Source: a virus
Taxonomy: Duplodnaviria; Heunggongvirae; Uroviricota; Caudoviricetes
Length of the DNA: 28,697 bases
IMG/VR virus record: IMGVR_UViG_3300014204_000143
Direction: 5' to 3' (one strand)
A program made the translations under genes and the position numbers. This document shows positions 3,930 to 28,697 of this stretch, piece by piece. Position 1 is the first letter of the stretch. Each line of letters starts with the position of its first letter. The notes under the pieces were generated by a model. It was not told where the DNA came from. It made no database searches and saw only the letters and a list, made by a program, of their open reading frames with translations.

Positions 3930-3934
3930 CTAAC

Positions 3935-3964: not shown

Positions 3965-4068
3965 ACAAATTAAGATAAAATTCTATTATACAAGAAAATA
4001 ATGCCAGTCAAGGTTTAAGCCAAAAAGACGTTAATTTAATAGATTTGCGGTCTATGGAGAAAATAAGA

Positions 4069-4416: not shown

Positions 4417-4686
4417 ATGTTAATCGAAGAACAAATAGAAACATTTGCACAAGAGTTTATTGATAAATACTTCGGTAAAACCGCTACCGAGTATTATTGG
4501 ATTGGTGAGGAAATTGGAGGAGTTATGGCTATCAACGATTACTTTTTTGACTTTGATTCTATGCTTCAGTTTATGCGACATAAGTATTCAAGAAAAAAAA
4601 TGTTTGAGTATTATGATTACGCCTTAGAACTTAATATGGCAAATGAATCACCTATAAATATAAAAAACTATGTTAGCAGAAAATAA
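4417..4686 (+). CDS. Hypothetical phage protein
   Basis: 89-aa aromatic-rich ORF with an A-rich leader; overlaps the next gene by 17 nt. Confidence 0.7.
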   Translation: MLIEEQIETFAQEFIDKYFGKTATEYYWIGEEIGGVMAINDYFFDFDSMLQFMRHKYSRKKMFEYYDYALELNMANESPINIKNYVSRK

Positions 4687-8785: not shown

Positions 8786-10229
8786 TGAAGAGTATTTAAA
8801 AAGAATAAAAGACCCAAAGTTTTATTTGGAGAATTTTACAAAGATAAAAGCTAGAGATGGGTTAGTTCCTTTTAAATTAAACGAATCACAGAAGGACTTA
8901 TTTAATATTTTAAAAAAAGAGAAGCGTGTTTGCATATTGAAATCAAGACAATTAGGGCTGTCGACAGGAGTGATTGGTTATCTATATCATAAAGCAATTA
9001 CAACTCCAGCTATTAATATTGCTATCATCGGTTATAACGCAGACTTAACTCGTGAACTTCTTGACAAGGTTAAAACGTTTTTAAGAACAACACCAGATAA
9101 GTTAAGACCAACAGTTAAGTATGATTCAAAGAGCGAAATGACGTTTCCAGTGATGGATAGCAAGATTATTGTCTTACCTTCAACGGCTAACGTAGGACGT
9201 GGATACTCACTTAACTTTATACTTTGCTCAGAGTTGAGTTTTTGGGATGAAGCCGAAGAAAAAATGGCGACACTAGAGGCTTCTGCTGGTATGGTCAATG
9301 GTCAAATTATTATTGAATCAACTCCATCAAACATCGGTAACAAGTATCACCAGATTTGGTCAGATGATAATAATGGATATTACAAAAGAAAATATGGATG
9401 GTGGTGGGGATATACAAAAGAACAACTCGAGACTATCCGAAAAAGAATAAACGACCCAAAAAGATTTGCTAGAGAATATCTCCTTGAATTTACTTCAACT
9501 GGTCGCCCTGTCTTTGACTTAGACTATGTGACTGCCATGAGAAAAAATATTTTAAGAGTCGGAGATATTAGAACATACGAAGATGGAAAAACATTTACAG
9601 TTTATGAAGACAATGGAGTTCGCATTTATAAAGAACCAGAAGTAGGGAAATCATACATAATAAGTTCAGATGTTTCAGAAGGCGTAGAAGGTGGAGACTA
9701 TAGTGTGATGACAATCTTAGAAAGAAATAGTGGAGAAGAAGTTGTTTTTTATAAGGGACTTCTTCCAGCAGATGTAATGGGTTCTTTAGTTAATAGGTGG
9801 GGAAGAAAATATAATAACGCTTTGGCAATTGTTGAGTGTAATAATCACGGACTGACAACTCTTACATCTTTAATGAATTTACAATACCCATCAATGTATT
9901 TTAGACCAGCTAAATATGATGCTTATGACGGTTCATTTAGTGATAAGTTGGGGTGGAGAACAACAACAACAACTAGACCTATCTTATTAGATGATTTAGG
10001 AAAGTGTTTAAGAGAAGGAAGTATTCTAATTCACAGTAAGGAGACGTTAGATGAAATGACAACCTTTGTTTGGACTGACTCTGGAAAACCAGAACCATCA
10101 TCTAAGTCATATCACGATGATACTATCTTTGCACTAGGAATTGCGATTCAAGCTTTCCCGATGGTATCAAACAAACCTTTAGACCAATTAGATTATAATC
10201 AATATTTACCAAAAAGTTTTAGTTACTAA
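8775..10229 (+). CDS. terL: Terminase large subunit
   Basis: Adenine-binding/Q motif FKLNESQ, Walker A ILKSRQLGLST, Walker B FILCSELSFW, coupling motif IIESTP, nuclease acidic motifs SSDVSEGVEGGDYS and HDDTIFA. Confidence 0.93.
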   Translation: MENNEEYLKRIKDPKFYLENFTKIKARDGLVPFKLNESQKDLFNILKKEKRVCILKSRQLGLSTGVIGYLYHKAITTPAINIAIIGYNADLTRELLDKVKTFLRTTPDKLRPTVKYDSKSEMTFPVMDSKIIVLPSTANVGRGYSLNFILCSELSFWDEAEEKMATLEASAGMVNGQIIIESTPSNIGNKYHQIWSDDNNGYYKRKYGWWWGYTKEQLETIRKRINDPKRFAREYLLEFTSTGRPVFDLDYVTAMRKNILRVGDIRTYEDGKTFTVYEDNGVRIYKEPEVGKSYIISSDVSEGVEGGDYSVMTILERNSGEEVVFYKGLLPADVMGSLVNRWGRKYNNALAIVECNNHGLTTLTSLMNLQYPSMYFRPAKYDAYDGSFSDKLGWRTTTTTRPILLDDLGKCLREGSILIHSKETLDEMTTFVWTDSGKPEPSSKSYHDDTIFALGIAIQAFPMVSNKPLDQLDYNQYLPKSFSY

Positions 10230-13200: not shown

Positions 13201-13294
13201 TGGAAAAGTAAATACAAACACTGGTAGTAATACCAATGGCGATGAGATGTCTAGACTCTTGGGTTCAGCACAAAATTTACAAGTTAAAAAATAA
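10241..13294 (+). CDS. Portal protein (P22/podovirus-like) precursor with intein; 689 aa after splicing
   Basis: Follows terL. The rejoined extein reads QSWQ|SNVFVPYVQSVVETLMPRI; portal-like segments LVYGTGF and ATEVR. Low-complexity G/Q/P C-terminal tail. Confidence 0.88.
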   Translation: MFNETYSASRFGEQELVSKFILQRDDSKDYFTGYIKPMLDRSYKLYIAYNGDREKEIQSWQCISEDTEILTLSGWKNCSEIKQGEVVLSYEKETGKILKDKVKKIFSYDIDDEMVSIKCDKTDQLVTTNHRVLLKKCRKKTTENLSSNTKVRQRMWNEKFDYCLADTLVGNGTDYRLPVSGFFDGNLSIGGDWAELIGWFLTDGSFTKGIKAGGYITQSKPEGLVKLRSLLFSLGVPFREWSRKKEKEHYFDEHRFYFGGDSEVMDKMRIWIPNRKPTNLLWNLKLSEKRRLIDGIFYGDGSKRPDGKYHMVCKPYKDFKEWFQTLLHLTGLRGNISEKYINIGYKDTVDVIGKKHIKTIKYKGNVWSISTERTNYIAKRNGHIFITGNSNVFVPYVQSVVETLMPRILDARPDFTVKGRNVDDQLKQEKVQNLQDYTWEISGMDKTSEDLVRSSLVYGTGFLQASWKLDKRKLSFLTSAVGDKKYKWKKEEKVYYDAPYAEWVDNYDLWYDWHNIERKNKQFWFKRKVLPESVIRRSYPYADPTKLAMAFKNGGADVTDYASIRRQVKKIHDGISRGDDRGTSGGGGYDSISQNYTDQSLKLHEVFEWWRPFEDKFAVMVNNVPIFPKGEIPNPYDFKESPFIDFSYLKLPNEFEGKGLPLILENPQIMLNTIKNQRLDSATMSIHKMWVVNPLANIDKKELVTRPFGIIYTPDVQGVREIQFSDIKASAYKEEDSLKSDMRYASGVDDFSMGAGGGASSATEVRHLRESTLERVRLFVNHLGYGYTDLMRYWISLWRQFMTEEMGIRILGEDGNFIFPIIEKDDLNGEFDFVATVNPSFAGKNDLDKKQGMDLFQLLSPMEFVDQKKLTQKVLHSWNWALDSILKTEEPVQPEQMEGMPGQDGIQPGQEGLQGFQGKIPGAKGAIPDDVLQQALGMLGGEAPASQPSPFAEAGQPINVLNTQGQVPPTAKDISGKTSNLRGLNRGGKVNTNTGSNTNGDEMSRLLGSAQNLQVKK
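10424..11407 (+). mobile_element. Intein (328 aa) with LAGLIDADG homing endonuclease
   Basis: Block A CISEDTEILT, block B LVTTNHRVL, endonuclease motifs LIGWFLTDGS and LIDGIFYGDGS, blocks F/G VWSISTERTNYIAKRNGHIFITGN, +1 Ser. Confidence 0.93.
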
Positions 13295-13303
13295 TTTAAT
13301 AAT

Positions 13304-13609
13304 ATGAAAATTGAAAATGAATATGTAGTAGATGGTGTCAATTCTACAAATGACTTATTAGCAGAACTTGGTAATAGTAAGTATTACAAAGCACTTTTGG
13401 TATATATGGAATACGTTCAGGCTCAGAACTTATATAAGTTATCTTATCTTGACCCCATTAAGGAACAAACAAAACTTGCTTCAACTCAAGGAGAGATAAG
13501 AGCGTTTGAAATGTTAAGTGCTAAGGTGGCAACTGAAGTTAAAAAATACGAAGACATAAAAAACGGGACAGAACCAGAAGAACCTAAAATTGCGTCTTAC
13601 AGAATGTAA
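13304..13609 (+). CDS. Small head-region hypothetical protein
   Basis: 101-aa ORF directly after the portal. Confidence 0.7.
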   Translation: MKIENEYVVDGVNSTNDLLAELGNSKYYKALLVYMEYVQAQNLYKLSYLDPIKEQTKLASTQGEIRAFEMLSAKVATEVKKYEDIKNGTEPEEPKIASYRM

Positions 13610-13618
13610 AGTTTGTTA

Positions 13619-13679
13619 ATCAACGAATGTTATCTCATAGAGGTAGCAGAAGTTGTTAATCAACGAATGTTATAATTAA
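13619..13679 (+). promoter_or_regulatory. Tandem putative late promoter (partial copy plus exact copy 3)
   Basis: ATCAACGAATGTTAT at 13619-13633 (the -10 is broken) and the full 21-mer at 13659-13679, 40 bp apart. Confidence 0.8.
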
Positions 13680-13703
13680 CGTATAAAGTAATTAATAATT
13701 AAT

Positions 13704-13868
13704 ATGAAAATCGATACAAGTATATTAGATAAAATGTCTAATAGCAAAAAACAACAAATGGATTTCGTTAAAAAGCAATTTGAAAAACCGAAAGAAGTAG
13801 ATTTAACAAGTCTAGCTATAAAATTTGCGAAGCGGAAAGCTTCGTTGAATGATAATGAAAATGAATAA
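13704..13868 (+). CDS. 54-aa hypothetical protein (not in the ORF track)
   Basis: MKIDTSILDKMSNSKKQQMDFVKKQFEKPKEVDLTSLAIKFAKRKASLNDNENE*, starting right after the promoter motif. Confidence 0.55.
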   Translation: MKIDTSILDKMSNSKKQQMDFVKKQFEKPKEVDLTSLAIKFAKRKASLNDNENE

Positions 13869-13887
13869 TAATTAACTATGAAACACT

Positions 13888-14703
13888 ATGTCTAATGAAG
13901 GACTAGATACATTCGATGACGGTAACGACATCAATGTTGACGATTTATTCGGCGAACCATCAACAGGTGGCACTCCAAAGAATGAATCAAAAAAAGAGAA
14001 AGCAGAAGAAACTGTTCCTTTAGCTCGTTACAAAGATGCTGAAAAGAAAATTTCAGAAATGGGAGAATCAATAGCAGAAAACACCAAATGGTTTAGTCAA
14101 GCTAAGCCGTGGTTGGACAAACTAGTTGAGTCTCCAGAAATAGTAGATGCTATTTTAAGTGGAAAATTGGATAGTAACTTATCCAAGGCAATTGTTGAAG
14201 GTAAAATTTCAACGGAAACTGCCAAAGAAGTTACACAAGCAAAAGAAGAAGTTAAAGAGGAATTAGGTAAAGACTTTATTAAGTTAACTCCTCAACAGTT
14301 GGAAAAACTTGTTGACGAAAAACTTAATGAAAGACTAGACACATTCAAAGAAAAAATTGACACAGAATTTAGTAAACACAAGGTTAGTGACGAAGCCGAA
14401 AAAGAAAATAGTGCTTTCGTTAGTAGAACCCCAGATATTGCTGAATATGCCGATGAAATTAATGAATGGTTGTCAGAACCAAGTCACCAAAACATTTGGA
14501 GGCTTGAAGATGCTTATTATGCAATCAAGGGTCGTAGATTTATGACTCGTGCTGCAGAAAAAAAAGCTAAAGAAGAAACTGAAGCTAAAAAACAAATTGC
14601 ATTAAATGCTAATGGTGCTTCATCTCAAGCAGGGACTCTTGAAAAAGATAACCTAGTTGATTCTATATTTAGTGGTCACGTCAATGCCAACAAACCTCGT
14701 TAG
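13888..14703 (+). CDS. Putative capsid scaffolding protein
   Basis: Acidic N-terminus, charged helical body, located between portal and capsid. Confidence 0.7.
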   Translation: MSNEGLDTFDDGNDINVDDLFGEPSTGGTPKNESKKEKAEETVPLARYKDAEKKISEMGESIAENTKWFSQAKPWLDKLVESPEIVDAILSGKLDSNLSKAIVEGKISTETAKEVTQAKEEVKEELGKDFIKLTPQQLEKLVDEKLNERLDTFKEKIDTEFSKHKVSDEAEKENSAFVSRTPDIAEYADEINEWLSEPSHQNIWRLEDAYYAIKGRRFMTRAAEKKAKEETEAKKQIALNANGASSQAGTLEKDNLVDSIFSGHVNANKPR

Positions 14704-14741
14704 TCTTCTGTTGTAATTAATTAATTTTATAAAAAAAGAAA

Positions 14742-16001
14742 ATGTCAACAGAATTTCCTTACCGAGCAGAACCTTCCCACAAAGTTGGGACTTCTACTAC
14801 TGGTACTCGCACAACCTCCACGCTTGATACAGCTGGTCAGTTGAAATTGGATGTCGCAGATAAAATTTACCTCTTAGAGGTCAATGCTCATCCTTTCGTA
14901 TCATACCTTACCAACGTTGGTAAGACTGTTAACGGACAAGCCGTTACAGGCAGTTCACTTTCAAAAGCTGTGACTGGTAATCCTAAATTTGAATGTATTG
15001 AAGATTCACATGGTGGCGTGTGGGCAAAAGTAAGTGGTACTTATGCTGCTTCAGGTGCCTTAACTATTACCGTAACTGGTGCTGGTTCAGAACCTGCTTA
15101 TATCTTTACCGTTGGTGACCTTTTCAAAAATGTCAGAACTGGTGAAGTTCAAAAAGTTGCTACAGTTGCTACTGCTACAACTATTACAACTGCTTCGACT
15201 GGTCGTGCTTATGGTACTACTGCCGCTGCTGCTGGTGCTGATGGTGATGACTTGCTTATCATTGGTAATGTTAATGAACAGGGTGCAACAGTTCGTAATG
15301 TCAATACTACAATTGCTAGTAAAACTTACAACTATACCCAAATCTTTAGAAACACTATCTCCGTAACAGGTACAGCCGAAGCCTCAGAAACTTATGGTGA
15401 AAATGATAGAAAGTTCCAACAGCGTAAAACAGCCGTTGAACATGCTAAATCTATCGAAAGACACTTCTTGTTTGGTGAAAGAAAAGCTACAACTGGTTCC
15501 AATGGAAATCCAGAATATGCAACTGGTGGTATTTTAGAACACATTGTTACTTCAGATGCTTATGTACAAGACCAAGACGGTCCATTAACAGCTCCTGATT
15601 TCAACTTGTTCCTAGAAAAAGGTTTCACTTATGGTAGTACAACCGATAAATTCTTGATGTGTGGTGGTACTGTTTTGAGTGCTATTAATGAATTCTCACG
15701 TGGTTCATTACAGACATCTATCGGAGACGAATATTATGGAATTAAAATCCATAAATATGTCTCAGCATTCGGCGACATCAATATTGTTCGCAATCCAGAA
15801 ATGCAAAAAGAATATGCTGGTTATGCTTTCTTGCTCGATATGAATTCATACAAGTATAGATTCTTGAAGGGTCGTGATACTAAACTCAGCTTGAATGTTC
15901 AAACTCCTGGTACCGATGGTATGGTGGATGAATATATCACAGAGTGCGGTCTTGAAAGAACTCTTGCTTCACAAAATGCTCTCTTGAAGGGTGTTGTCTA
16001 G
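14742..16001 (+). CDS. Major capsid protein (SU10-like/DUF5309-type, HK97 fold)
   Basis: Motifs NYTQIFRNTISVTGTA, EHAKSIERHFLFG and TGGILEHI; follows the scaffold. Contains an Ala/Thr-rich beta-strand insertion. Confidence 0.85.
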   Translation: MSTEFPYRAEPSHKVGTSTTGTRTTSTLDTAGQLKLDVADKIYLLEVNAHPFVSYLTNVGKTVNGQAVTGSSLSKAVTGNPKFECIEDSHGGVWAKVSGTYAASGALTITVTGAGSEPAYIFTVGDLFKNVRTGEVQKVATVATATTITTASTGRAYGTTAAAAGADGDDLLIIGNVNEQGATVRNVNTTIASKTYNYTQIFRNTISVTGTAEASETYGENDRKFQQRKTAVEHAKSIERHFLFGERKATTGSNGNPEYATGGILEHIVTSDAYVQDQDGPLTAPDFNLFLEKGFTYGSTTDKFLMCGGTVLSAINEFSRGSLQTSIGDEYYGIKIHKYVSAFGDINIVRNPEMQKEYAGYAFLLDMNSYKYRFLKGRDTKLSLNVQTPGTDGMVDEYITECGLERTLASQNALLKGVV

Positions 16002-17577: not shown

Positions 17578-18768
17578 ATGCAGGTAAAAACAGTTGATGA
17601 TTATTTTTCATTTTTCTACGACCCACATATTTATGGGGGTGGTAGTATTGATGAATTAATCAGAATTTACACAGGGAATTGTAATGTTGTTAATGGAAAA
17701 CTAAGAGTTTATGCGACCGCAACCGATAGTGCTATTATAAACACTTCATTCATGCACATGCTGGGTGACTGGGTTGCTAAGATAAAAGTGCCTACTGCAC
17801 CAACCAGCGGAGATAACCGTGTCTGGGGTTTATATTCCAGAAGTTACGGTAATCGAAATGCTGCCTATTTCTTTATAAGTGGTACAAATTTTTACACAAG
17901 AACATATGATGGTGATGGAAATGTAGAATCAAGAAGTATTACATGGGATACCTCGTGGACAAACACCGAGGTTGAATGGGAAATTAGGTGGAGAATCAAT
18001 AAGATTGAATTCTTAGCTAATGGTAGGGTGTTAAGCACAATTACGAAATCTCTTGGTGATTCTACATCACAATTTGATATAACAAACACATACGCAGATA
18101 CTTATCGATATACGTGGGATACAACAGGAACAGACCCAGAATTATCGTTAGTATCAAAATCAGACAATGTTCAGATTTATTCGGCAAAGTTTAGTTCTGG
18201 GAATAATGGAACATTTAATGTTTCTAACGTAGGAACAAATTGGTTTGAAGTAATTAATCCAAATGGAGTTGCTGAAAATAACAAGACTCTTGGGGTTGCT
18301 GGTTACGTTAATCTTTTAGGTGGAAGAAGTTCTCATTGGAGTCACATTCCAAAACAAGTATTAATTCCAACTTATTTCTCAAATGCTGGTAAGCCAGCAA
18401 CTGATGCCTTAGTAATGGATTGGTTGAGAATTGAAGGTGCTCGCAAATTCCAACAGGCTACTTGTAGTTATTACAGTTCTACTTCAACTACGTCTAGTTC
18501 TACTTCATCGTCAACTTCGTCTAGTACGTCTAGTTCGACTTCAAGTTCAACATCTAGTTCGACTTCTTCGTCAACTTCGTCTAGTACGTCAAGTTCGACT
18601 TCAAGTTCTACGTCTAGTTCAACTTCTTCGTCAACTTCGTCTAGTACGTCAAGTTCAACTTCAAGTTCTACATCTAGTTCGACAAGTTCATCAACTTCGT
18701 CTAGTACGTCAAGTTCAACTTCAAGTTCTACGTCTAGTTCTACAAGTTCAACAACAACACTTCCATAG
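17578..18768 (+). CDS. Putative virion protein: ConA/GH16-like beta-sandwich plus C-terminal Ser/Thr tract
   Basis: WEIRWRINKIEFLANGRVL resembles the ConA-like lectin/glucanase strand motif; the C-terminal 95 residues before LP* are only Ser/Thr. Confidence 0.7.
   Translation: MQVKTVDDYFSFFYDPHIYGGGSIDELIRIYTGNCNVVNGKLRVYATATDSAIINTSFMHMLGDWVAKIKVPTAPTSGDNRVWGLYSRSYGNRNAAYFFISGTNFYTRTYDGDGNVESRSITWDTSWTNTEVEWEIRWRINKIEFLANGRVLSTITKSLGDSTSQFDITNTYADTYRYTWDTTGTDPELSLVSKSDNVQIYSAKFSSGNNGTFNVSNVGTNWFEVINPNGVAENNKTLGVAGYVNLLGGRSSHWSHIPKQVLIPTYFSNAGKPATDALVMDWLRIEGARKFQQATCSYYSSTSTTSSSTSSSTSSSTSSSTSSSTSSSTSSSTSSSTSSSTSSSTSSSTSSSTSSSTSSSTSSSTSSSTSSSTSSSTSSSTSSSTSSSTSSTTTLP
18475..18759 (+). repeat. 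(TSSS)n coding repeat 1, 95 codons, with a 60-nt higher-order period
   Basis: TCAACTTCGTCTAGTACGTC recurs exactly at 18511, 18571, 18631 and 18691. Confidence 0.95.
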
Positions 18769-18825: not shown

Positions 18826-20118
18826 ATGAATAAAGATAACATTAAGAATATCGAACCTATCGATATTATTTTGGTTTCTTATAATAGATTAAACTTTTTA
18901 AAAAAAATAGTAAATGAAATATATGAGAGAACAAATTATCCTCACAGATTAATTGTAGTTGATAACAATTCTGATGATGGTTCTAAGGATTGGTTACAAA
19001 ACGCTAAATTAAATGGTTTTGTTTCTGAAAACATATTTTTAGAAAAGAATAACGGATTAGCTAATGGATATACAGAAGGTTTTAAACATGTAAGAAGTAA
19101 ATATTTTATTACTACCCAGGATGATTGTTTACCACCAAAGTTACAACCATGTTGGCTTGAAAGAATGGTACATTTATTTGAAAAATATGATAATGAATAT
19201 TTAGCTTTATCAATGAGAATTCAAAGAATTAGACATAGAAAAGTTGATGAATTTGACGATATTATTGAATCACCAACATCACTAGCCTCAGTATTTAGAA
19301 TTCAAAGAAAAGAAGAAATAGAACAGGTTGGAGGTTTTGGTAACAGACAACATTGGGAAGGGGTTAGTTTTGTAAAAATGACAAAACATTTTAGAAAAAA
19401 ATACGGAGTTACGACACACATTTATTCAGACCACATTGGATTTATGTCAAATAATAAAGGTTTTAAAGAAGGTTTTAAGGACTATTTTACATATTCACCA
19501 GAGAGAGTTAATCAGGGTGAATTACAACCATATCCAGACGTAGAACCTAAAAGTTTAATTCCAATAAAAATAAATACAACAAGAGATTCTGTTGAGCAAA
19601 ATAAACGAAAAGAGTATTACGATTATTGGGGTCACGATATGAGAAAAGGAAAATTAAGATTAACAGAAGAACAGTTGGAATTATCTAAGTATTGTGAAAC
19701 TGGTGTTGGTTTAGATTTGGGTTGCGGAATGATAAAATGCAATAATAATTGTATTGGTATGGACGTTTATCCTCACGAGTGTGTAGACGTTGTTGGTGAC
19801 TGCACTGACTTGTGGATGTTTAAGGATAATGAGTTGGATTTTATAGTAAATGCTCATTTATTGGAACATTTACCAGACACACCAACGGTATTAAAAGAAT
19901 GGAAAAGAGTTTTAAAACCAGGAGGAATTTTAGGTATAGCGGTTCCTGATGGAGAAATTAAACATAAATATATTATTAAAAATGGTCATAAGGTAAACTT
20001 GGGTTTAAAGACATTAGAATTACTCGTCCATCGAGTAGTTGGAATGAAAATACTTAGATTGGAACAAGTTAAGAAGTCACCTGGTAAATTTGTCGCTTTA
20101 ATTATTGCTAAAAAATAA
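18826..20118 (+). CDS. GT2 glycosyltransferase fused to a class I SAM methyltransferase
   Basis: IDIILVSYNR...LIVVDNNSDDGS and TTQDDC (DxD-like); C-terminal LDLGCG, FIVNAHLLEHL and EWKRVLKPGGIL..AVPD. Confidence 0.88.
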   Translation: MNKDNIKNIEPIDIILVSYNRLNFLKKIVNEIYERTNYPHRLIVVDNNSDDGSKDWLQNAKLNGFVSENIFLEKNNGLANGYTEGFKHVRSKYFITTQDDCLPPKLQPCWLERMVHLFEKYDNEYLALSMRIQRIRHRKVDEFDDIIESPTSLASVFRIQRKEEIEQVGGFGNRQHWEGVSFVKMTKHFRKKYGVTTHIYSDHIGFMSNNKGFKEGFKDYFTYSPERVNQGELQPYPDVEPKSLIPIKINTTRDSVEQNKRKEYYDYWGHDMRKGKLRLTEEQLELSKYCETGVGLDLGCGMIKCNNNCIGMDVYPHECVDVVGDCTDLWMFKDNELDFIVNAHLLEHLPDTPTVLKEWKRVLKPGGILGIAVPDGEIKHKYIIKNGHKVNLGLKTLELLVHRVVGMKILRLEQVKKSPGKFVALIIAKK

Positions 20119-20120
20119 AT

Positions 20121-20732
20121 ATGAAAGTATCAATTATAACAGCTGCTTTTAGAGCAGAATATATGGATAGAGTATGGCAATCTGTTTTATCTCAAACGCA
20201 TAAAGAATGGGAATGGATAATAGTAAATGATGGACAAGATTCTATTAGAGAATGGTTTAACAAATCAAAGTCAAGTGGTATTTTTGAAGGATACGATGTT
20301 TGGTTTATTGATGTTACAAAAAATATGGGTAGATTTGGTTTATATGCTAGGAATATTGGTATAGTCTCATCACATAATGAGCATATCGTATTTTTAGATG
20401 ACGATAATGAATTTAACCCAGACCATATTGAGAGTCTTCTTAGTCTTGAAATATCTTCAGGAAAAGTTCCTTATTGTTATTTGCATATCAAGGGAAAGAA
20501 GGAAGATTCAAAGTTTGAAAGGGTAAAGGTTACTAATCTGCATAGGGGACAAATAGACCTTGGATGCGTGTTATATAAAAAAGAATATTTTGATAAGTTC
20601 GGATATTTTAGAAATGATTCACAGATAACATTTGACTGGAATTGTATAGACAGAATTTGGAAAGGGTTAGGAAATGATTCATTTGTATCAACTGAAAATC
20701 CATCATTAGTCTTTTGGCACAGAAGATATTAA
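20121..20732 (+). CDS. GT2 glycosyltransferase
   Basis: MKVSIITAAF, SVLSQTHKEWEWIIVNDG, ARNIGI, HIVFLDDDN. Confidence 0.88.
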   Translation: MKVSIITAAFRAEYMDRVWQSVLSQTHKEWEWIIVNDGQDSIREWFNKSKSSGIFEGYDVWFIDVTKNMGRFGLYARNIGIVSSHNEHIVFLDDDNEFNPDHIESLLSLEISSGKVPYCYLHIKGKKEDSKFERVKVTNLHRGQIDLGCVLYKKEYFDKFGYFRNDSQITFDWNCIDRIWKGLGNDSFVSTENPSLVFWHRRY

Positions 20733-20733
20733 A

Positions 20734-21048
20734 ATGAGAGATTATTTAAAAGACATCAATATAGTCCAAGCAATGTTAGTATTTAGAGAGGGTGATTTAC
20801 TTGACCAATCTATACCAAGTTTTTTAAAATATGCTGATAAAATTATAATAATGCTTGATAATAGTGATGAATATACAGAAAATAAGGTAATGTCGTATAA
20901 GTTAAAATATCAAGATAGAATAATTGTTAATCAATCTGAGTTCTATAAACTAGAATCTTCTCCAGAAAAGATGAATTCAAGATTCTGTAAATTAGAAGGT
21001 AAAATACGAAACAGTTTATTAGATTCTGTTAGAAATGAAAATAATTAA
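20734..21048 (+). pseudogene. Truncated GT2-like protein (N-terminal half only)
   Basis: AMLVFREGDLLDQSI...ADKIIIMLDNSDEYT...EGKIRNSLLDSVR, then a stop just before where the DxD strand would be expected. Confidence 0.55.
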
Positions 21049-21057
21049 AAATAAAAT

Positions 21058-22164
21058 ATGTCAATACAAGAAAAAGTTAAATTAATACAAGGTGGTAAAT
21101 TTGAAGGCAGTTCAATTACTAACGGAAAAATTTATCACGATTTACCATTTGAAAAACTTGGTAAAATAAGAAGTCACCGTGGAAATACTCGTGGTAGAAT
21201 TAATCAAATTTTAGATATTGTTGATGTTAAGGGTAAGACTGTATTAGATATAGGTTGTAATGTTGGAGGAATATCTCTCGGAATGGCAGAGGCTGGTGCT
21301 AGTTATGTTATGGGTGTTGATTATGATAAGGAGAGTATAGATATAGCAGTTGAGGCAACAAAAGAACTAGAATTTACAAATGCTAATTTTGATTGTGAAA
21401 ACATCGACATTAATTCCTTAAAAGACATTAAAAACTATGACATTATCATCTGGCTTTCTCAGTGGCAATGGATGGTTAAACAATATGGATTAGATATTGC
21501 CAAAGATATGTTGTTTGAAGTATCTAGAAAGTGTGAAGTTTTGGTGTTTGATAGTGCTTCTGATGATGGGATGGCCAGAATAAAGGGTTCAACTCAAGAT
21601 GATATTGAAAATTGGTTATTAGAAAATACTTGTTTTGATACTATAATTAGATATAAAGGTTTACCTGGATGGCTTAATAGAGACTTGTTTATTTGTAGCA
21701 ACCCAGTTAAAAGAATAAAAGATAGACACATAGCGGCATCATCTATTATAGAGAGAATTAGTAGAAACGAAATTAAAAAAACATATAAATTAAGTAATAT
21801 ATGGATGGTAAAGCGTGAATCTGAGTTTTTAACAGCACTTAAAGACAGTATTCATTTTCCAAAATTAATAGAAACTGGTGATAATTACATAGTAATGAGT
21901 TATTGTGGTAGACCTGGAAAAGTGACTAAGGATATGGAAACTCAAACAAGTGAAATTTTAAAAGCACTAGAAATTGCAGGAATTAAACACAGAGATATAA
22001 GGAGTGGAAATTTGTTATCTTTAAATGGTATATTATATTTAATAGATTTTGGGTTATCAATTTGGATAACTGAGACAGATACGCCATTTTTATCTGCCAA
22101 AAGGTTCAGAAAAGAGTCAAATACTGATTCTAGTGCTATAAATGAATTTTTTAAAAGTTTGTAA
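21058..22164 (+). CDS. Bifunctional SAM methyltransferase-kinase (WbdD-like domain order)
   Basis: TVLDIGCNVGGIS...GVDYD (SAM motif I), followed by kinase motifs IKKTY, RESEFL, HFPKLI, IVMSY, HRDIRSGNLL and LIDFG. Confidence 0.85.
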   Translation: MSIQEKVKLIQGGKFEGSSITNGKIYHDLPFEKLGKIRSHRGNTRGRINQILDIVDVKGKTVLDIGCNVGGISLGMAEAGASYVMGVDYDKESIDIAVEATKELEFTNANFDCENIDINSLKDIKNYDIIIWLSQWQWMVKQYGLDIAKDMLFEVSRKCEVLVFDSASDDGMARIKGSTQDDIENWLLENTCFDTIIRYKGLPGWLNRDLFICSNPVKRIKDRHIAASSIIERISRNEIKKTYKLSNIWMVKRESEFLTALKDSIHFPKLIETGDNYIVMSYCGRPGKVTKDMETQTSEILKALEIAGIKHRDIRSGNLLSLNGILYLIDFGLSIWITETDTPFLSAKRFRKESNTDSSAINEFFKSL

Positions 22165-22556: not shown

Positions 22557-25226
22557 ATGGCAACAGTAGTATGTGCCGCTTGTGCGGATGGAAATTTAAC
22601 CTCAGCCTCAACTTGGGCAATATGTGATCAGAGTTCAACCGCTGGACTTTCTTTTTTAGATACAGAAGGAAGTTCTGGAGTTGCAATTGGTTCAACACCA
22701 GCATATAGTGGTAATTTTTCTTGGACTTCTGGTGCTCCTACAATTGATGGGATTGGCTTAAAACTTGCAAGTCGAGCCGCATCAGTTTCGGGAACAATTA
22801 CGGTAATTTTAAGAGATGTAACTGGTTCTTCTAATGTAAAAACCGTAACAATAGATGCCGCAGATTTATCAGCACAATCTTATGGTTGGACATTTTTTAA
22901 GTTTGATTCATCAACCGCACTCTCAAACTCTAATAATTATGCTGTTGGTATTTCGGCATCAACAACACAACCAATTACAATTTTAAAACGAACGTCAGAT
23001 AATGATTTTGCTAAATATTTAAGAACAACAACAACTGGTGCTCCTGCCGCCGATGATGTAATGATTGTTTGTGGTGAATTTACCGCCGCAGGTGCAATGA
23101 CAACTAGAACGGTTACAATGAATAGCACCGCCACAACATCTTATGGGGTGGTTGCAGTGACAACATACTTACAACACATCTCAGTTGGACAAGGTGGATA
23201 TTGGAATAATGGAACAACCGCCTCAACTGATTATAATTTTACTTGGAAAGGTATATTTCAAGTTAGTGGTGGTGGAACGCTTAACATAGGTAGTTCTGGC
23301 ACTCGTTTCACTTCATCATCTACCGCAAGTTATAATGCGGCTGCCACTGCTAGTGGTAATACTGGTATAGTTTATAATATCGGGGCAGTAGTCAATATTT
23401 ATGGAACTACTAAGAACGAACAGACACTATTAACCGAATCTATCGGTGGAATTTGTTCAACTTCAGGGACAACGGTTACCAGACACACTGGTCTTTCATT
23501 CACTGGACTATCGGGGACACTTACAATCAATAGTGTTGGATATACCATCGCATCAGTAACAGATGCTGACCACCTAGAATTAACGGGAAGTCCTGGTAGT
23601 CAAACATATAAAAATTATATTCACTCAACTGCCAATGTAGTCAAGGTTGTCTCGACTTCTGGTTGGGTAGCTGGAGATACCTTGGCTTTTGCAGGAACTG
23701 GACAGAGTGTTTCTGAGGGTGAAAGTGCAACGATTTCAAACGTCGATAGTGCAACCCAAGTAACACTTTCGACTTCACTAACAAAACCCCACATTGTTGA
23801 TGGGTATGATGTAGTTGCTGAAGTCATCAATCTAACCAGAAATGTTAAATTTTTTGGAACATCTAGCTATGGAGGATATTCAGTGTCTGAGTCATCTGCT
23901 GTCGTTAATATTCACGATGTCGAACACTATTATTGGGGATATAATGCCACTGGTAAAAAAGGAATGACAATTCGAAGCACCACTGGTTCTTGTAATTTTC
24001 TTCACAATTCAATTTATAACTCAAACTTCACGGGTAATATTTCAGTCGATGTTTTGGGAAGTTCTTCGAATAATATTTTGATTGAATACAATGTTCTTTA
24101 TAATGTTACTGTTGGAATGTCGTTGGCAACATCTTCAAATGCAACTCATTGCCATAACAACTGCTTAATAACTTGTGCTGGTAACGGAATCACTTCTGGT
24201 AATCTGATTCACGAGATTTCTTATAATAGAATTGCCAATGCAGCAACAAACGGATTAAATTATAGTAATCCTGCTGGAGTCACTATTGGTCTTTGTGATA
24301 ACAATATTTGTCATAGTTGTAGTAGTGGACTTACAATCAACGCCGTCTATGCACAAGGAAACATTACAAATTGTAAAGCTTATAACAATGTTGGTAATGG
24401 ATTTAACTTTACATCCGCAATTCAAAATATAAAAATTAGTGATTCAAAAACATTTGGTAACGCAAGCAAAAACTTATTATTCACTAGTGCCGCTGGACAC
24501 GTCCTTTTAGATAACGTCACTCTTGGTGGTTGGATAGGTAGTGGTTCTGCTGGGTCAGGTGTTTATATGGAAAATGTTTGTTTTGATGTTAGAAGTAAAA
24601 ACTGCTCATTCGGGGTTACTTCGGGTTCGATTGTCGGTCAGGTTACTTCTGATTTTTACTTTACTGGTTTAAATTACGGTAAGTGGGTTGATGATAATAG
24701 TTATTTTGGTTCATCGACTTTGATAACTGGTCCAACAAGAATTTATTCAATGTTTCCTGGCGACCCATCAATGTTATCTTTTGAAAGATTTAATCGTACT
24801 GCTGGTTCTCATAAAACTTATACGAGTGAGGGATTGATTGAAATCGATACTACTGAATATTATGGAGCGAGTGGAGAGTCAACTCGAATGACACCTAACG
24901 CAAATGCGACTACATCAAATAGAATGAAAAGTTATGAATTTAAATGTGCCGTTGCTAGCGGAAATACAGTAACTCCAACACTATATTTAAAGAAAAATGC
25001 TTCTTATGACGGTTCTCAACCTCGACTTTATGTTAAACAAAACTATGCTCTCGGGATAACCGCCGATACACTCTTGGCGACTTATGCTTCAGGGACTGGT
25101 TCTTGGAATTCTCTTGGAGGGGTAGCAACTGCTTCTGTGACCGATGATGGAACTTTATCTTTTTATGTTGATTGTGACTACAACACTGGTGGTTATATAA
25201 ATATCGACACGGTAAATATTCCTTAA
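22557..25226 (+). CDS. Putative tailspike/receptor-binding protein with right-handed parallel beta-helix
   Basis: Asn/Gly/Cys-rich PbH1-like repeats (HNSIYNS, YNVLYNV, HNNCLIT, YNRIANA, DNNICHSC); AEVINLTRNVKFFG motif; beta-rich C-terminal domain. Confidence 0.75.
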   Translation: MATVVCAACADGNLTSASTWAICDQSSTAGLSFLDTEGSSGVAIGSTPAYSGNFSWTSGAPTIDGIGLKLASRAASVSGTITVILRDVTGSSNVKTVTIDAADLSAQSYGWTFFKFDSSTALSNSNNYAVGISASTTQPITILKRTSDNDFAKYLRTTTTGAPAADDVMIVCGEFTAAGAMTTRTVTMNSTATTSYGVVAVTTYLQHISVGQGGYWNNGTTASTDYNFTWKGIFQVSGGGTLNIGSSGTRFTSSSTASYNAAATASGNTGIVYNIGAVVNIYGTTKNEQTLLTESIGGICSTSGTTVTRHTGLSFTGLSGTLTINSVGYTIASVTDADHLELTGSPGSQTYKNYIHSTANVVKVVSTSGWVAGDTLAFAGTGQSVSEGESATISNVDSATQVTLSTSLTKPHIVDGYDVVAEVINLTRNVKFFGTSSYGGYSVSESSAVVNIHDVEHYYWGYNATGKKGMTIRSTTGSCNFLHNSIYNSNFTGNISVDVLGSSSNNILIEYNVLYNVTVGMSLATSSNATHCHNNCLITCAGNGITSGNLIHEISYNRIANAATNGLNYSNPAGVTIGLCDNNICHSCSSGLTINAVYAQGNITNCKAYNNVGNGFNFTSAIQNIKISDSKTFGNASKNLLFTSAAGHVLLDNVTLGGWIGSGSAGSGVYMENVCFDVRSKNCSFGVTSGSIVGQVTSDFYFTGLNYGKWVDDNSYFGSSTLITGPTRIYSMFPGDPSMLSFERFNRTAGSHKTYTSEGLIEIDTTEYYGASGESTRMTPNANATTSNRMKSYEFKCAVASGNTVTPTLYLKKNASYDGSQPRLYVKQNYALGITADTLLATYASGTGSWNSLGGVATASVTDDGTLSFYVDCDYNTGGYINIDTVNIP

Positions 25227-25249: not shown

Positions 25250-26848
25250 ATGGCTTCGGTAGACCCACAAGGAGAACAAAATTATTGGGAAGATGGTCTT
25301 CCATTTAGAGGGATAAAAAATGGAAGCCATGATGCTGGTGAAATGCAGTTCTGGGACGAAGGGCTTCCTTTTGCATACTTATTTCCTTCTGGAGCAACAA
25401 CGACATCAACGAGTAGTTCTACAAGCTCTTCGACTTCATCGTCTACAAGTTCTTCGACTTCGAGTAGTACGTCTAGTTCGACATCAAGTTCTACGTCTTC
25501 ATCAACAAGTAGTTCCACTAGCTCATCAACAAGTTCAAGCACATCTAGTTCAACTTCATCGTCTACAAGTTCTTCGACTTCGAGTTCTACGACTTCATCG
25601 TCTACAAGTTCTTCAACTTCAAGTTCTACGTCTAGTTCTACGTCTAGTTCGACTTCAAGTTCTACAAGTTCTAGTACTTCGAGTTCAACATCAAGCAGTA
25701 CTTTAAGTTCAACTTCATCATCTACTAGTTCTTCAACTTCTAGTACTTCGTCGTCAACAAGTTCATCAACATCATCTTCTACTTCAAGTTCGACAAGTAG
25801 CTCAACATCAAGTTCGACAAGTAGTTCTACATCTTCATCGACTAGTAGTTCTACGAGTTCATCAACAAGTTCAACTTCGAGTTCTACCAGTTCTAGTACG
25901 TCTAGTTCTACATCTTCATCGACGAGCAGTTCAACTTCGTCAAGTACGTCTAGTTCAACGTCAAGTAGTACAAGTTCATCTACCTCAAGCTCAACTAGTT
26001 CTTCGACAAGTTCAACTTCAAGTTCAACGTCAAGTTCGACTTCATCGTCTACGAGCAGTTCAACTTCTTCGAGTACGTCTAGTTCGACGTCTAGCTCAAC
26101 GTCTAGTTCAACTAGTTCTTCGACTTCAAGTTCAACGTCTAGTTCAACTTCAAGTTCTACGTCTTCATCGACAAGTAGTTCGACTTCAAGTTCTACGTCT
26201 TCATCGACAAGTAGTTCGACTTCTAGTTCGACTTCTAGTTCTACGTCTTCATCGACAAGTAGCTCGACTAGCTCTTCGACTTCAAGTTCAACGTCTAGTT
26301 CAACTAGTTCTTCGACTTCAAGTTCAACGTCTAGCTCGACAAGTAGTTCTACAAGTTCTAGCACATCTAGTTCGACTTCAAGTTCTACTAGTTCTTCAAC
26401 TAGTAGCTCAACGTCATCTAGTACATCTCTTCCGTCTGACGAAGACTATTCTAGGGGAGACTATGCTAATTTGCCATTAGACGAAACAGACCTAGAGACT
26501 TTATTTTCTTCATCAGATTATTTAAAAGTAAGAACTGTTGATAGTATTTTTGTAGACCAAACAGCAACTGCTGAATATTCTGTCTTCTTATTTAAAAATC
26601 AAGCACCTGACGCTATTAATCCTCCGAATATGACGTGTGTCGCTAAAAGTAGTTTAGCTCCAACAATTTCAACTGTTTATTTACAAGTATATAACTTAAC
26701 AACGTCTTCTTGGGAAACCTTAACGTCAAATTCTGTCGCTAATGCTGATACTCCGTTTACAATGACAGCATCGCTAACTAGCGGTTTAGACGACCATCGA
26801 GATGTTGGTAATTGGTATTATTTTAGAGTTTATCAATTACAATTTTAA
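25250..26848 (+). CDS. Mucin-like putative virion protein: 49-aa head, 344-aa Ser/Thr stalk, ~140-aa distal domain
   Basis: Direct translation. The N-terminus contains the duplicated motif GEQNYWEDGLPF / GEMQFWDEGLPF. Confidence 0.8.
   Translation: MASVDPQGEQNYWEDGLPFRGIKNGSHDAGEMQFWDEGLPFAYLFPSGATTTSTSSSTSSSTSSSTSSSTSSSTSSSTSSSTSSSTSSSTSSSTSSSTSSSTSSSTSSSTSSSTTSSSTSSSTSSSTSSSTSSSTSSSTSSSTSSSTSSSTLSSTSSSTSSSTSSTSSSTSSSTSSSTSSSTSSSTSSSTSSSTSSSTSSSTSSSTSSTSSSTSSSTSSSTSSSTSSSTSSSTSSSTSSSTSSSTSSSTSSSTSSTSSSTSSSTSSSTSSSTSSSTSSSTSSSTSSSTSSSTSSSTSSSTSSSTSSSTSSSTSSSTSSSTSSSTSSSTSSSTSSSTSSSTSSSTSSSTSSSTSSSTSSSTSSSTSSSTSSSTSSSTSSSTSSSTSSSTSSSTSLPSDEDYSRGDYANLPLDETDLETLFSSSDYLKVRTVDSIFVDQTATAEYSVFLFKNQAPDAINPPNMTCVAKSSLAPTISTVYLQVYNLTTSSWETLTSNSVANADTPFTMTASLTSGLDDHRDVGNWYYFRVYQLQF
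25397..26428 (+). repeat. (TSSS)n coding repeat 2, 344 codons
   Basis: All Ser/Thr except one Leu (TTA at 25703); mixed synonymous codons. Confidence 0.95.
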
Positions 26849-27626: not shown

Positions 27627-28697
27627 ATGTCAAGAAAATTATACAATTCAGAAGATGCCACCTATGGAGATATTGATAATTATTATAATGGTGGAGAATT
27701 GGGTACATTAAGCATTGATTTGTGGAATGTAGTTTTTTCTGGAACAACAACATCTTCTACAAGTTCTAGTACTTCATCATCTACATCCTCTTCGACTTCT
27801 AGTTCTACATCTAGTTCAACTTCATCGTCAACAAGCAGTTCAACATCTTCAAGTACGTCTAGTTCAACGTCTAGTTCTACATCAAGTTCTACAAGTTCTT
27901 CGACTTCAAGTTCTACGTCTTCATCGACTAGTAGCTCAACGTCTAGTTCGACTTCAAGTTCTACGTCTTCATCAACTAGTAGTTCTACGTCTAGTTCGAC
28001 ATCAAGTTCTACGTCTTCATCGACTAGTAGCTCAACGTCTAGTTCGACATCAAGTTCTACGTCTTCATCGACTAGTAGTTCAACGTCTAGTTCTACATCA
28101 AGTTCTACAAGTTCTTCAACTTCAAGTTCAACGTCTTCATCAACAAGTAGTTCAACGTCTAGTTCTACTAGTAGCTCTACATCTTCATCAACTTCAAGTT
28201 CTACAAGTTCTTCGACTAGTAGTTCTACAAGTTCTTCAACTTCAAGTTCTACGTCTTCATCTACGAGCAGTTCTACTTCTTCATCGACTAGTAGTTCAAC
28301 TAGTTCTTCGACTTCAAGTTCTACGTCTTCATCTACGAGCAGTTCTACTTCTTCATCGACTAGTAGTTCAACTAGTTCTTCGACTTCAAGTTCTACGTCT
28401 TCATCAACAAGTAGTTCTACCAGTTCTTCAACCTCAAGTTCAACATCAAGCAGTACATCAAGTTCAACTTCATCATCTACTAGTTCTTCGACTTCAAGTT
28501 CTACGTCTAGTTCAACTTCATCGTCTACGAGTAGTTCAACTTCTTCGAGTACGTCTAGTTCAACAAGTAGCTCAACATCAAGTTCGACAAGTAGTTCTAC
28601 ATCTTCATCAACAAGTAGTTCTACTTCAAGTTCGACTTCAAGTTCAACCAGTTCTACCTCGTCATCGACTAGTAGTTCTACAAGTTCTAGTACGTCA
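27627..28697 (+). CDS. Third mucin-like protein, partial (runs off the window; not in the ORF track)
   Basis: ATG at 27627: MSRKLYNSEDATYGDIDNYYNGGELGTLSIDLWNVVFSG, then an open Ser/Thr frame to the window end. Confidence 0.8.
   Translation, partial: MSRKLYNSEDATYGDIDNYYNGGELGTLSIDLWNVVFSGTTTSSTSSSTSSSTSSSTSSSTSSSTSSSTSSSTSSSTSSSTSSSTSSSTSSSTSSSTSSSTSSSTSSSTSSSTSSSTSSSTSSSTSSSTSSSTSSSTSSSTSSSTSSSTSSSTSSSTSSSTSSSTSSSTSSSTSSSTSSSTSSSTSSSTSSSTSSSTSSSTSSSTSSSTSSSTSSSTSSSTSSSTSSSTSSSTSSSTSSSTSSSTSSSTSSSTSSSTSSSTSSSTSSSTSSSTSSSTSSSTSSSTSSSTSSSTSSSTSSSTSSSTSSSTSSSTSSSTSSSTSSSTSSSTSSSTSSSTSSSTSSTSSSTSSSTSSSTS
27744..28697 (+). repeat. (TSSS)n coding repeat 3, at least 318 codons
   Basis: Ser/Thr codons continue in frame to the last base. 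Confidence 0.95.

Follow-up and report, generated by a model that had tools for sequence, protein, structure and literature searches.

Results

A methyltransferase-kinase gene within a phage glycosyltransferase cassette

The DNA analyzed here, a stretch of 28,697 nucleotides referred to as the window, belongs to an uncultivated 93-kb phage. It encodes a terminase (8775-10229), a portal protein (10241-13294) and, on the plus strand, a major capsid protein of the SU10 type (14742..16001; SU10_MCP, 3.8e-46) that is at most about 28-32% identical to the capsid protein of any cultured phage. A cassette of four plus-strand genes follows at 18826-22164, with gaps of only 2, 1, and 9 nt between consecutive genes. 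The first gene (18826..20118) specifies a 430-aa protein in which a GT2 glycosyltransferase is fused to a methyltransferase (Glycos_transf_2, 1.3e-17; Methyltransf_11, 6e-14); the methyltransferase glycines and the pair D99 and D100, read as a DXD motif, are invariant. A second GT2 glycosyltransferase of 203 aa (20121..20732; Glycos_transf_2, 7.6e-15) is followed by a 104-aa remnant with a faint GT2 likeness (20734..21048). The remnant was recognized through phmmer matches to longer ORFs of two related loci, and its counterparts in related phages comprise 264-281 aa (267-, 264-, and 281-aa ORFs of L001 and L003). Because the next gene starts 9 nt after its stop codon, there is no room for the missing part. 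That last gene, an ATG-to-stop ORF at 21058..22164 on the plus strand, encodes a methyltransferase-kinase fusion of 368 aa, hereafter MTK. No membrane segments were found in any cassette enzyme.

The position of the capsid gene places the cassette inside the virion-gene block, and the two GT2 genes and the remnant lie between the capsid gene and fibre-like genes, all in the same orientation. A sequencing-run search detected the same DNA in a landfill metagenome and a groundwater metagenome, and listed no RNA datasets containing it. No tRNA genes were found.

MTK combines intact methyltransferase and kinase motifs

The initial annotation had described this ORF as an N-terminal SAM methyltransferase fused to a kinase, and the ORF, the DIGCNVG, HRDIRSGN, and DFG motifs and the corresponding Pfam domains were all found. 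The methyltransferase domain spans residues 1-211 (21058..21690, plus strand), and its class I core at residues 58-131 matches Methyltransf_31 (3.7e-10). The minimal kinase domain occupies residues 212-368 (21691..22161, plus strand), with residues 240-336 matching RIO1 (1.9e-5; 24.8 bits against a cut-off of 22) and Pkinase (2e-4). AlphaFold2 modeled the full protein with a mean pLDDT of 91.6 and a pTM of 0.89, and the kinase domain alone with a pLDDT of 89.1.

All of the following motifs lie on the plus strand. In the methyltransferase, these are the SAM motif I VLDIGCNVG (residues 62-70; 21241-21267), the acidic D88 within GVDYD (21313-21327), and the invariant basic residues R41 and R47 (21178-21198) and R208 (21670-21681). 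The key positions of the kinase comprise K241 and E254, the catalytic loop HRDIRSGN (residues 311-318; 21988-22011), the LIDFG stretch (residues 328-332; 22039-22053, with DFG at 22045-22053), and, in the last helix, D357, which is nearly invariant. Among 44 family members, the SAM-motif residues D64, G66, C67, G70, and D88 and the kinase residues K241, D313, and D330 are invariant, while N318 is kept in 43, H311 in 41, and E254 in 38. MTK is a SAM methyltransferase joined to a minimal kinase, with its catalytic residues all intact.

MTK stops 36 residues past DFG, and both a coiled-coil ruler and a membrane anchor are absent. There is no hydrophobic segment apart from the kinase beta-strands, and the C-terminus is neither hydrophobic nor amphipathic. 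These features agree with the earlier description of a soluble enzyme in which the C-terminal coiled coil and membrane anchor of WbdD are not evident.

MTK is a homolog of the WbdD catalytic module

The closest solved protein to MTK is WbdD of Escherichia coli O9a and Klebsiella pneumoniae O3 (708 aa; PDB 4AZS, 4AZT, 4AZW, 4AX8, and 4UW0; PMC3482155), which likewise has a class I methyltransferase at its N-terminus that continues directly into a eukaryotic-type kinase domain. A search with the single MTK sequence recovered WbdD at 1.2e-7 and also aligned another, colinear stretch at the catalytic loop. With the MTK family profile, WbdD was the best match in the PDB at an E value of 1.4e-22 (83 bits), the next protein reaching 4.3e-12; profile positions 45-220 aligned with WbdD 34-215. 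A Foldseek search with the MTK model placed WbdD at ranks 1-5 (about 1e-18, over 365-409 columns), with the next match at 1e-10. VIA-align paired MTK 2-368 with WbdD 4-397 across both domains (Z 20.4), with an rmsd of 14.5 Å over 323 residues, the predicted domain arrangement being unlike that of WbdD. The WbdD likeness and shared domain order proposed initially are thereby upheld, and since WbdD leads both by profile and by fold, ahead of other methyltransferases, the best structural matches are not unrelated methyltransferases. MTK is a true homolog of the catalytic module of WbdD, which comprises residues 1 to about 397, and keeps its domain order.

The two halves contribute unequally to this likeness, which is carried by the methyltransferase domain. 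Although the catalytic residues D351, N356, and D369 of WbdD align with D313, N318, and D330 of MTK, the kinase part matches WbdD weakly by family profile (13 bits; domain E value 0.38). When the MTK kinase domain was searched alone, WbdD did not appear among the top 60 profile matches, nor among the top 50 Foldseek matches or the top 50 rows of VIA-align; consequently, a specific kinship of the two kinase halves could not be shown. Activity and disaccharide preference of the WbdD kinase require C-lobe elements and helix alpha-V (PMC3482155). MTK lacks this helix and the remaining kinase C-lobe, and has neither a coiled-coil ruler nor a membrane-binding end nor a polymerase-recruiting site.

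Within the methyltransferase, functional residues of WbdD are conserved only in part. R203 of WbdD, which adjoins the transferred methyl group and has no counterpart in NodS and RebM (PMC3482155), aligns with the invariant R208 of MTK at high posterior probability. For R36, part of the sulphate or anion pocket of WbdD, the aligned residue is the invariant R47, with moderate posterior probability. Invariant Y26 and R41 have a spacing compatible with Y16 and R31 of the N-terminal lid in WbdD. A profile of MTK residues 1-100 leaves both WbdD residues unmapped, aligning WbdD from residue 55 on (native 4UW0 numbering), and is not WbdD-specific, as PRMT-type methyltransferases rank first. At the positions of H132 and H133, each of which abolishes methylation in vitro when mutated in WbdD (PMC3482155), MTK has Q137, where 38 of 44 members carry methionine, and W138, which is invariant.

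The absence of this histidine pair, on which phosphate methylation by WbdD depends, invites an alternative that we consider rather unlikely, namely that both domains tailor a phage glycan independently. The kinase would then leave a free or later substituted phosphate, and the methyltransferase would O-methylate a sugar hydroxyl, as the methyltransferase-type WbdD of serotype O5 does, with no methyl-phosphate being formed. Chains capped by methyl alone are indeed known from K. pneumoniae O5 (PMC11231755). Retention of the R203 equivalent and of the second invariant arginine opposite R36 argues against this separation of the two activities.

The N-terminal motif and a SQWMW stretch of MTK also prompted a PRMT-like reading. 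Profile searches gave 1e-10 for PRMTs against 1e-22 for WbdD. PRMTs are defined by two loop glutamates, neither of which is evident in the SQWMW stretch, and this reading was rejected.

Structural neighbors of the separate domains

Searched alone, the MTK kinase is no closer to the kinase of WbdD than to RIO, Bud32, or ordinary protein kinases. Its best folds were RIO2 (1TQI; Z 15.2 over 140 aligned residues) and RIO1 (Z 14.2), and Bud32 matched at 1.7e-9 by profile, although the NCBIfam Bud32 score of 6.6e-6 lies far below the curated cut-offs. The domain looks like a RIO/Bud32-sized core, sharing the size and fold of these kinases (PDB 1TQI, 1ZP9, and 8UNK) and likewise having no activation segment and no lower C-lobe. 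RIO and Bud32 kinases act in ribosome maturation or tRNA modification and, unlike MTK, carry no methyltransferase fusion; RIO-specific N-terminal elements were not detected in MTK, where the methyltransferase precedes the kinase core instead. For the methyltransferase, the best match among methyltransferase-only structures was MePCE, like WbdD a phosphate O-methyltransferase (Z 17.9, rmsd 2.8, 190 residues by VIA-align), with a lead of less than one Z unit over other methyltransferases, and the RNA 5'-phosphate methyltransferase BCDIN3D reached Z 15.8.

Together with the archaeal RNA kinase Ark1 (Z 13.6 to the kinase domain), MePCE and BCDIN3D, both of which methylate RNA 5' phosphates, suggest that MTK might act on nucleic-acid ends, as a minimal RNA or DNA 5'-kinase followed by 5'-phosphate methylation of the MePCE/BCDIN3D type. 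We regard this as highly improbable: WbdD is clearly the best match overall and the one spanning both domains, the consistent neighbors and fusion partners of MTK are glycosyltransferases, and the protein has no nucleic-acid-binding domain.

The nearest neighbors of the isolated kinase, which include TTK and CK2 besides RIO and Bud32, would also accommodate a protein Ser/Thr kinase. Its targets would be the (SSST)n tracts encoded nearby, where phosphate could serve as a charge coat or as a primer for phosphoglycosylation, and the methyltransferase would act on that phosphate or elsewhere. Three neighboring proteins present hundreds of Ser/Thr hydroxyls, as described below. In protein kinases, however, peptide substrates are bound by the activation segment and the lower C-lobe, and MTK ends soon after DFG without either. 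Direct fusions within the family moreover join the module to GT2 domains rather than to repeat proteins, and the protein-kinase reading appears improbable.

A large family coupled to glycosyltransferases

MTK belongs to a large, mostly viral family. We recovered 60 metagenomic homologs at 27-54% identity (E values down to 1e-123) and, at E <= 1e-30, 180 cluster representatives (50% identity), which takes the observation far beyond chance. Neither the protein nor the DNA matched the GenBank phage collection of cultured phages, and no published description of such phage enzymes was found in a literature search. Another compact viral copy of the module, K7YUZ4 of Megavirus courdo11 (401 aa; BFVD predicted structure), resembles MTK over its full length and both domains (1.2e-22 over 398 columns), although its carrier is a giant virus of eukaryotes.

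Among 201 collected relatives, the order methyltransferase-kinase occurs in 112 and the reverse order in 19. Four relatives carry a GT2 domain and the methyltransferase-kinase module in a single chain (P0092, P0100, P0106, and P0196), and one (P0184) joins the module to an FkbM methyltransferase. In a further case the two domains are encoded by adjacent, overlapping genes (P0044/P0161) within an island containing eight glycosyltransferase genes. A glycosyltransferase lies within two genes of the MTK relative in 11 of 12 distinct loci, and homologs of the GT2-methyltransferase fusion lie upstream in 8 of the 12, directly abutting the MTK gene in 3 and persisting next to relatives of only 33% identity. 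Homologs of the second GT2 gene are present in L001, L003, L006, and L008, and the glycosyltransferase arrangement beside virion genes recurs in L001, L003, L005, and L008. These patterns show that the methyltransferase and kinase are coupled to each other and to glycosyltransferases. A glycan as the MTK substrate is well supported, and the link to phage glycan synthesis first drawn from the window stands on the conserved neighborhood, the GT2 fusions, and the split and permuted forms in glycosyltransferase islands.

The same data bear on independent tailoring by the two domains. Related cassettes are crowded with sugar-type O-methyltransferases (Methyltransf_24/RMNT_CmcI and Methyltransf_11) and sulfotransferase-like genes, as would suit a multitude of separate decorations. 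On the other side, the two domain subfamilies stay paired through both fusion orders and gene splitting, as expected for consecutive steps on one group.

As a further alternative, MTK could act on a host envelope glycan (O antigen, capsule, or a teichoic-type polymer) during its assembly at the cytoplasmic face of the membrane. Premature capping would then remodel the cell surface, for example, to block superinfection. WbdD itself acts on lipid-linked O polysaccharide at that face, where capping halts polymerization (PMC3482155), and PHROGs annotates the phage GT2 genes as O-antigen conversion types. This scenario nevertheless seems quite improbable. MTK has no membrane anchor or amphipathic C-terminus, and the cassette, flanked by capsid and fibre-like genes that share its orientation, is not part of a lysogeny or early region. 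In addition, the module is accompanied by glycosyltransferases and sugar-nucleotide genes of its own, which suggests a self-contained pathway.

A role in DNA glycosylation was considered separately and rejected: the scanned ORFs of the window include no cytosine methyltransferase or dioxygenase family. A report on DNA glycosylation (bioRxiv 10.1101/2023.12.21.572611) mentions no kinase.

(SSST)n proteins as candidate acceptors

Three plus-strand genes flanking the cassette encode mucin-like proteins with (SSST)n tracts, which are candidate glycan acceptors. The first (17578..18768) specifies 396 aa, of which the C-terminal 95 residues (300-394) form the tract. In the second (25250..26848; 532 aa), the tract covers residues 50-393 with one interruption, and the third (27627..28697), which runs off the window, contains more than 318 such residues. 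In L001, L003, and L008, the capsid gene is followed by an ortholog of the first protein that has the same tract, and homologs of the second are present in L003; in all four near-clade loci covering the region, (SSST)n proteins lie beside the cassette. No long Ser/Thr tract occurs within 10 kb of distant family members, even though those at 33-40% identity keep their glycosyltransferase partner. The (SSST)n proteins therefore cannot be the general acceptor of the family, and this distribution also speaks against the protein-kinase reading.

Two known systems resemble this arrangement in part. In the mycobacteriophages Che8 and Rita, phage glycosyltransferases are reported to modify the phages' own virion proteins in the cytoplasm (PMC11256854). 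These are actinobacteriophages with glycans on their major capsid proteins, in contrast to the (SSST)n tracts proposed here as candidate acceptors, and PMC11256854 mentions only glycosyltransferases. The serine-rich repeat glycoproteins of Gram-positive bacteria likewise carry long Ser-rich tracts that are O-glycosylated intracellularly by dedicated soluble glycosyltransferases encoded beside the substrate gene (PMC6973325, PMC7948813), as is proposed for the cassette. These glycoproteins are bacterial adhesins exported by the accessory Sec system, their enzymes belong to other families than those of the phage cassette, and, unlike in the MTK cassette, no kinase-methyltransferase is known to act on them.

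Discussion

Structural and neighborhood comparisons lead us to favor, by a little more than an even chance, MTK as a soluble two-domain glycan-tailoring enzyme that adds phosphate and methyl to sugars built by phage glycosyltransferases, capping included. The four genes at 18826-22164 would presumably be expressed late in infection, together with the virion genes. The GT2 domains would draw on the nucleotide-sugar pools of the host and transfer sugars to an acceptor in the cytoplasm. For this phage clade, the most likely acceptor sites are Ser/Thr hydroxyls within the (SSST)n tracts of the three flanking virion-region proteins, which would then serve as glycan carriers. The MTK kinase (K241, E254, H311-R312-D313, N318, and D330) would phosphorylate a sugar hydroxyl with ATP, a sugar being its probable acceptor. 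The methyltransferase (D64/G66/C67/G70/D88, with basic R41/R47/R208) would then methylate that phosphate, and the resulting methyl-phosphate group may block further extension at its position. The phospho-methyl cap and the polymeric product that the initial annotation proposed for MTK are unproven predictions.

WbdD sets chain length by means of a coiled-coil ruler, together with membrane anchoring, recruitment of the polymerase, and an ABC transporter for export (PMC11231755). Since neither ruler nor anchor nor transporter accompanies MTK, which also lacks polymerase recruitment, the initial proposal of a length-controlled glycan found no support. Any limit on chain length would instead be kinetic, given by competition between glycosyltransferase and capper, as there is no ruler, anchor, or export step. 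The genetic settings also differ: WbdD is encoded in an ABC-transporter-dependent O-polysaccharide gene cluster with the GT4 polymerase WbdA as partner, whereas MTK is encoded in a phage virion-gene block with soluble GT2 proteins, and no transporter or lipid-carrier gene was found among the scanned ORFs of the window. A second bacterial terminator, ORF6 of K. pneumoniae O7, is comparable by description, as its N-terminal methyltransferase and kinase jointly make a terminal methyl-phosphate (PMC11231755). It is fused to two GT2 modules, recalling the GT2 fusions of the MTK family. Its kinase is of the AmiN/aminoglycoside-kinase type, unlike that of WbdD in sequence and structure, and the protein bearing this terminator contains a coiled coil and a carbohydrate-binding module (PMC11231755).

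The wider picture, in which this phage and a mostly viral family, the giant-virus copy included, employ a ruler-less, soluble WbdD-type module to add methyl-phosphate caps to O-methylated glycans built in the cytoplasm on mucin-like (SSST)n virion proteins, is possible but doubtful. In bacterial O-antigen assembly, methyl-phosphate capping is bound up with the ruler and export (PMC11231755), and a literature search found no methyl-phosphate glycan caps outside bacterial O antigens. If the proposal is true, the MTK cap would be the first of that kind, and a free-standing catalytic module in phage virion cassettes would show that the capping chemistry has been reused for a different purpose. It would also represent a general viral means of terminating glycans, in which kinetic competition, and no molecular ruler, determines chain length. 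As a compact, soluble enzyme of 368 residues, MTK is far easier to study than WbdD, and with its GT2 partners and the (SSST)n proteins it forms a small expressible gene set in which virion glycosylation outside actinobacteriophages can be tested directly. Because the module is represented by 180 sequence clusters and is found in both fusion orders, as split genes, and in GT2 fusions, any function found for MTK would apply widely.

Results

The 368-aa methyltransferase-kinase fusion (MTK) is encoded by a real gene, a frame of 368 codons running from ATG to stop at 21058–22164 (+). The motifs quoted in the initial annotation were all located in this frame, namely the SAM motif VLDIGCNVG (residues 62–70) and the kinase motifs HRDIRSGN (311–318) and LIDFG (328–332). 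Residues 58–131 were assigned to a class I SAM methyltransferase (Pfam Methyltransf_31, 3.7e-10) and residues 240–336 to a kinase (Pfam RIO1, 1.9e-5, over the curated cut-off; Pkinase, 2e-4). Sixty metagenomic homologues (27–54% identity, mostly 350–385 residues) share this architecture, and an exhaustive profile search brought the number of cluster representatives with E ≤ 1e-30 to 180. Modelled by AlphaFold2 from 44 sequences, the protein reached a pLDDT of 91.6 and a pTM of 0.89. Family columns without variation comprise D64, G66, C67, G70, and D88 in the SAM site, Y26, R41, R47, W138, W205, and R208 elsewhere in the methyltransferase domain, and K241, D313, and D330 in the kinase, while H311, R312, N318, E254, and D357 are near-invariant. 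Because the catalytic columns are invariant or nearly so, both halves look catalytically competent, as judged from their residues.

WbdD, the E. coli O9a enzyme that caps O-polysaccharide by phosphorylation and then methylation, was the top solved relative of MTK in every whole-protein test. It was recovered by single sequence (1.2e-7, plus another colinear segment matching at the catalytic loop), by family profile (1.4e-22; next protein, 4.3e-12), by Foldseek (ranks 1–5 all WbdD, approximately 1e-18 over 365–409 columns; next, 1e-10), and by VIA-align (Z 20.4 over 323 residues, model 2–368 on WbdD 4–397), which bears out the homology and N-terminal methyltransferase order proposed earlier. 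The VIA-align rmsd was 14.5 Å, and the relative placement of the two domains therefore differs between the MTK model and WbdD. At positions tested by Hagelueken et al. (PMC3482155), WbdD kinase residues D351, N356, and D369 correspond to D313, N318, and D330. WbdD R36, in the sulphate pocket, lies opposite invariant R47, and R203, which is located at the methyl group and not present in NodS or RebM (PMC3482155), lies opposite invariant R208. However, the H132/H133 pair, each member of which is required for WbdD methylation (PMC3482155), is replaced by Q/M137 and invariant W138, and the alignment placed no counterpart position for Y16 or R31. The likeness to WbdD resides in the methyltransferase; when the kinase domain was modelled alone (pLDDT 89.1), the closest among the matches listed were RIO2 (Z 15.2), RIO1, Ark1, and ordinary protein kinases, and WbdD was not among them. 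As had been anticipated, a coiled coil and membrane anchor are absent: the chain ends 36 residues past DFG, so that MTK lacks the WbdD lower C-lobe, helix alpha-V, coiled coil, and membrane end. Since these C-terminal parts are missing, the WbdD ruler mechanism (PMC11231755) is inapplicable, and the earlier proposal of a length-controlled glycan is not supported.

The two domains are persistently paired. Of the 201 relatives collected, 112 run methyltransferase-kinase and 19 the other way round; 51 consist of the methyltransferase alone and 9 of the kinase alone. A methyltransferase-only protein (P0044) and a kinase-only protein (P0161) are encoded by neighbouring, overlapping genes. The island around them, on a 150-kb contig, contains eight glycosyltransferase genes. 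Such pairing would be expected if the two activities act one after the other on a single chemical group. In the reversed-order member P0119 (767 aa), an intein that contains a LAGLIDADG endonuclease interrupts the sequence.

The window is a virion-gene block from the 92.7-kb contig of an uncultivated phage, with DNA occurring in a landfill and a groundwater metagenome; no close relative was found among cultured phages. It encodes a large terminase (8775–10229), a 1017-aa intein-bearing portal protein (10241–13294, +), and an SU10-type capsid protein (14742–16001). Portal residues 77–382, in the N-terminal third, match Intein_splicing and LAGLIDADG_3, the latter a homing-endonuclease domain, with the portal domains starting near residue 410. 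A histone-like DNA-binding protein of the HU/IHF family (Bac_DNA_binding, 1.6e-9) is encoded at 1679–1963 (+), ahead of the packaging genes. MTK is the fourth and final gene of a same-strand enzyme cassette with intergenic gaps of 2, 1, and 9 nt, following a GT2-methyltransferase fusion (18826–20118), a GT2 (20121–20732), and a 104-residue remnant (20734–21048, +); no membrane segments were found in the four enzymes. The remnant corresponds to the N-terminal third of a 264–281-aa protein of related phages (loci L001, L003, and L008), and the rest was deleted rather than frameshifted, since MTK starts only 9 nt past its stop. Directly downstream of the cassette, 22557–25226 (+) encodes an 889-aa Ser/Thr/Gly/Asn-rich protein, possibly a fibre or spike, for which Pfam, PHROGs, and NCBIfam gave no hits.

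We compared 12 distinct loci that encode full-length relatives. In 11 of them, a glycosyltransferase gene is no more than two genes away from the MTK gene; the remaining locus has sulfotransferase-like, methyltransferase, and APS-kinase neighbours. A GT2-methyltransferase homologue lies upstream in eight loci and directly abuts the MTK gene in three of these, at only 33–38% identity. Related cassettes add Methyltransf_24/rhamnosyl-O-methyltransferase-like, cytidylyltransferase, epimerase/dehydratase, UDP-glucose dehydrogenase, GT1, and GT8 genes. Four relatives (P0092, P0100, P0106, and P0196) join GT2 and methyltransferase-kinase in a single chain, and P0184 fuses an FkbM methyltransferase to the module. 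These fusions agree with the gene neighbourhood, and a glycan is a well-supported candidate substrate of MTK.

Individual cassettes vary. In L001, an IS605 OrfB/TnpB-type gene (12479–13663) sits between the methyltransferase genes and the final GT2. The much larger cassette of L003, a 101-kb relative (3626–4651 and 11110–15140), encodes a papain-type peptidase, three GT2, two Methyltransf_24, and sulfotransferase-like, cytidylyltransferase, and metallophosphatase-like proteins, followed by a 1032-aa protein with a long Ser/Thr tract, (SSST)n. In the replication-gene region of L004 (9385–12333 and 21589–21722), a 573-aa relative with about 200 extra N-terminal residues adjoins a sulfotransferase-like gene and methyltransferases, with an APS-kinase gene close by, a context that hints at sulfation instead of, or besides, phosphorylation.

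Three (SSST)n proteins flank the cassette, at 17578–18768 (+; tract of 95 residues), 25250–26848 (+; 344 residues, one interruption), and 27627–28697 (+; more than 318 residues). Such proteins lie downstream of the capsid gene in all near-clade loci covering the region (the window, L001, L003, and L008), where the tracts are likely glycan carriers. Direct phosphorylation of the tracts by the MTK kinase is a weakened alternative: more distant phages keep the glycosyltransferase partner, yet no long Ser/Thr tract was found within 10 kb in them. The tracts are thus probable clade-level carriers that do not define the family substrate. Long, spurious Leu/Glu/Val/Asp-rich ORFs opposite each tract are taken up by gene callers (L001). 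L011, whose G+C content is 60%, is a phage that encodes a distant MTK relative; one of its proteins (2005–3153) opens with 30 residues that are nearly all serine.

Discussion

MTK is a compact, soluble homologue of the WbdD catalytic module and a partner of phage glycosyltransferases. This much of the initial interpretation stands, whereas ruler-based control of chain length is excluded. A methyl-phosphate would be our best single guess for the product, given the WbdD homology and one conserved arginine, set against the missing His pair.

The papers retrieved, on bacterial WbdD and on O-antigen-receptor phages, describe no phage methyltransferase-kinase like MTK; one preprint gives the name 'WbdD' to an archaeal-virus methyltransferase in passing. 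Virion glycosylation by phage-encoded machinery is known in mycobacteriophages, according to a passage of PMC11256854 citing Freeman et al. 2023. A 680-aa Mimivirus-like 'glycosyltransferase' contains a methyltransferase domain related to that of MTK. Megavirus courdo11 K7YUZ4 (BFVD, 401 aa) matches both domains of the MTK model (E 1.2e-22, 398 columns), and several Atlas clusters of MTK relatives are dominated by viruses, which together suggest that the methyltransferase-kinase module is widespread in viruses.
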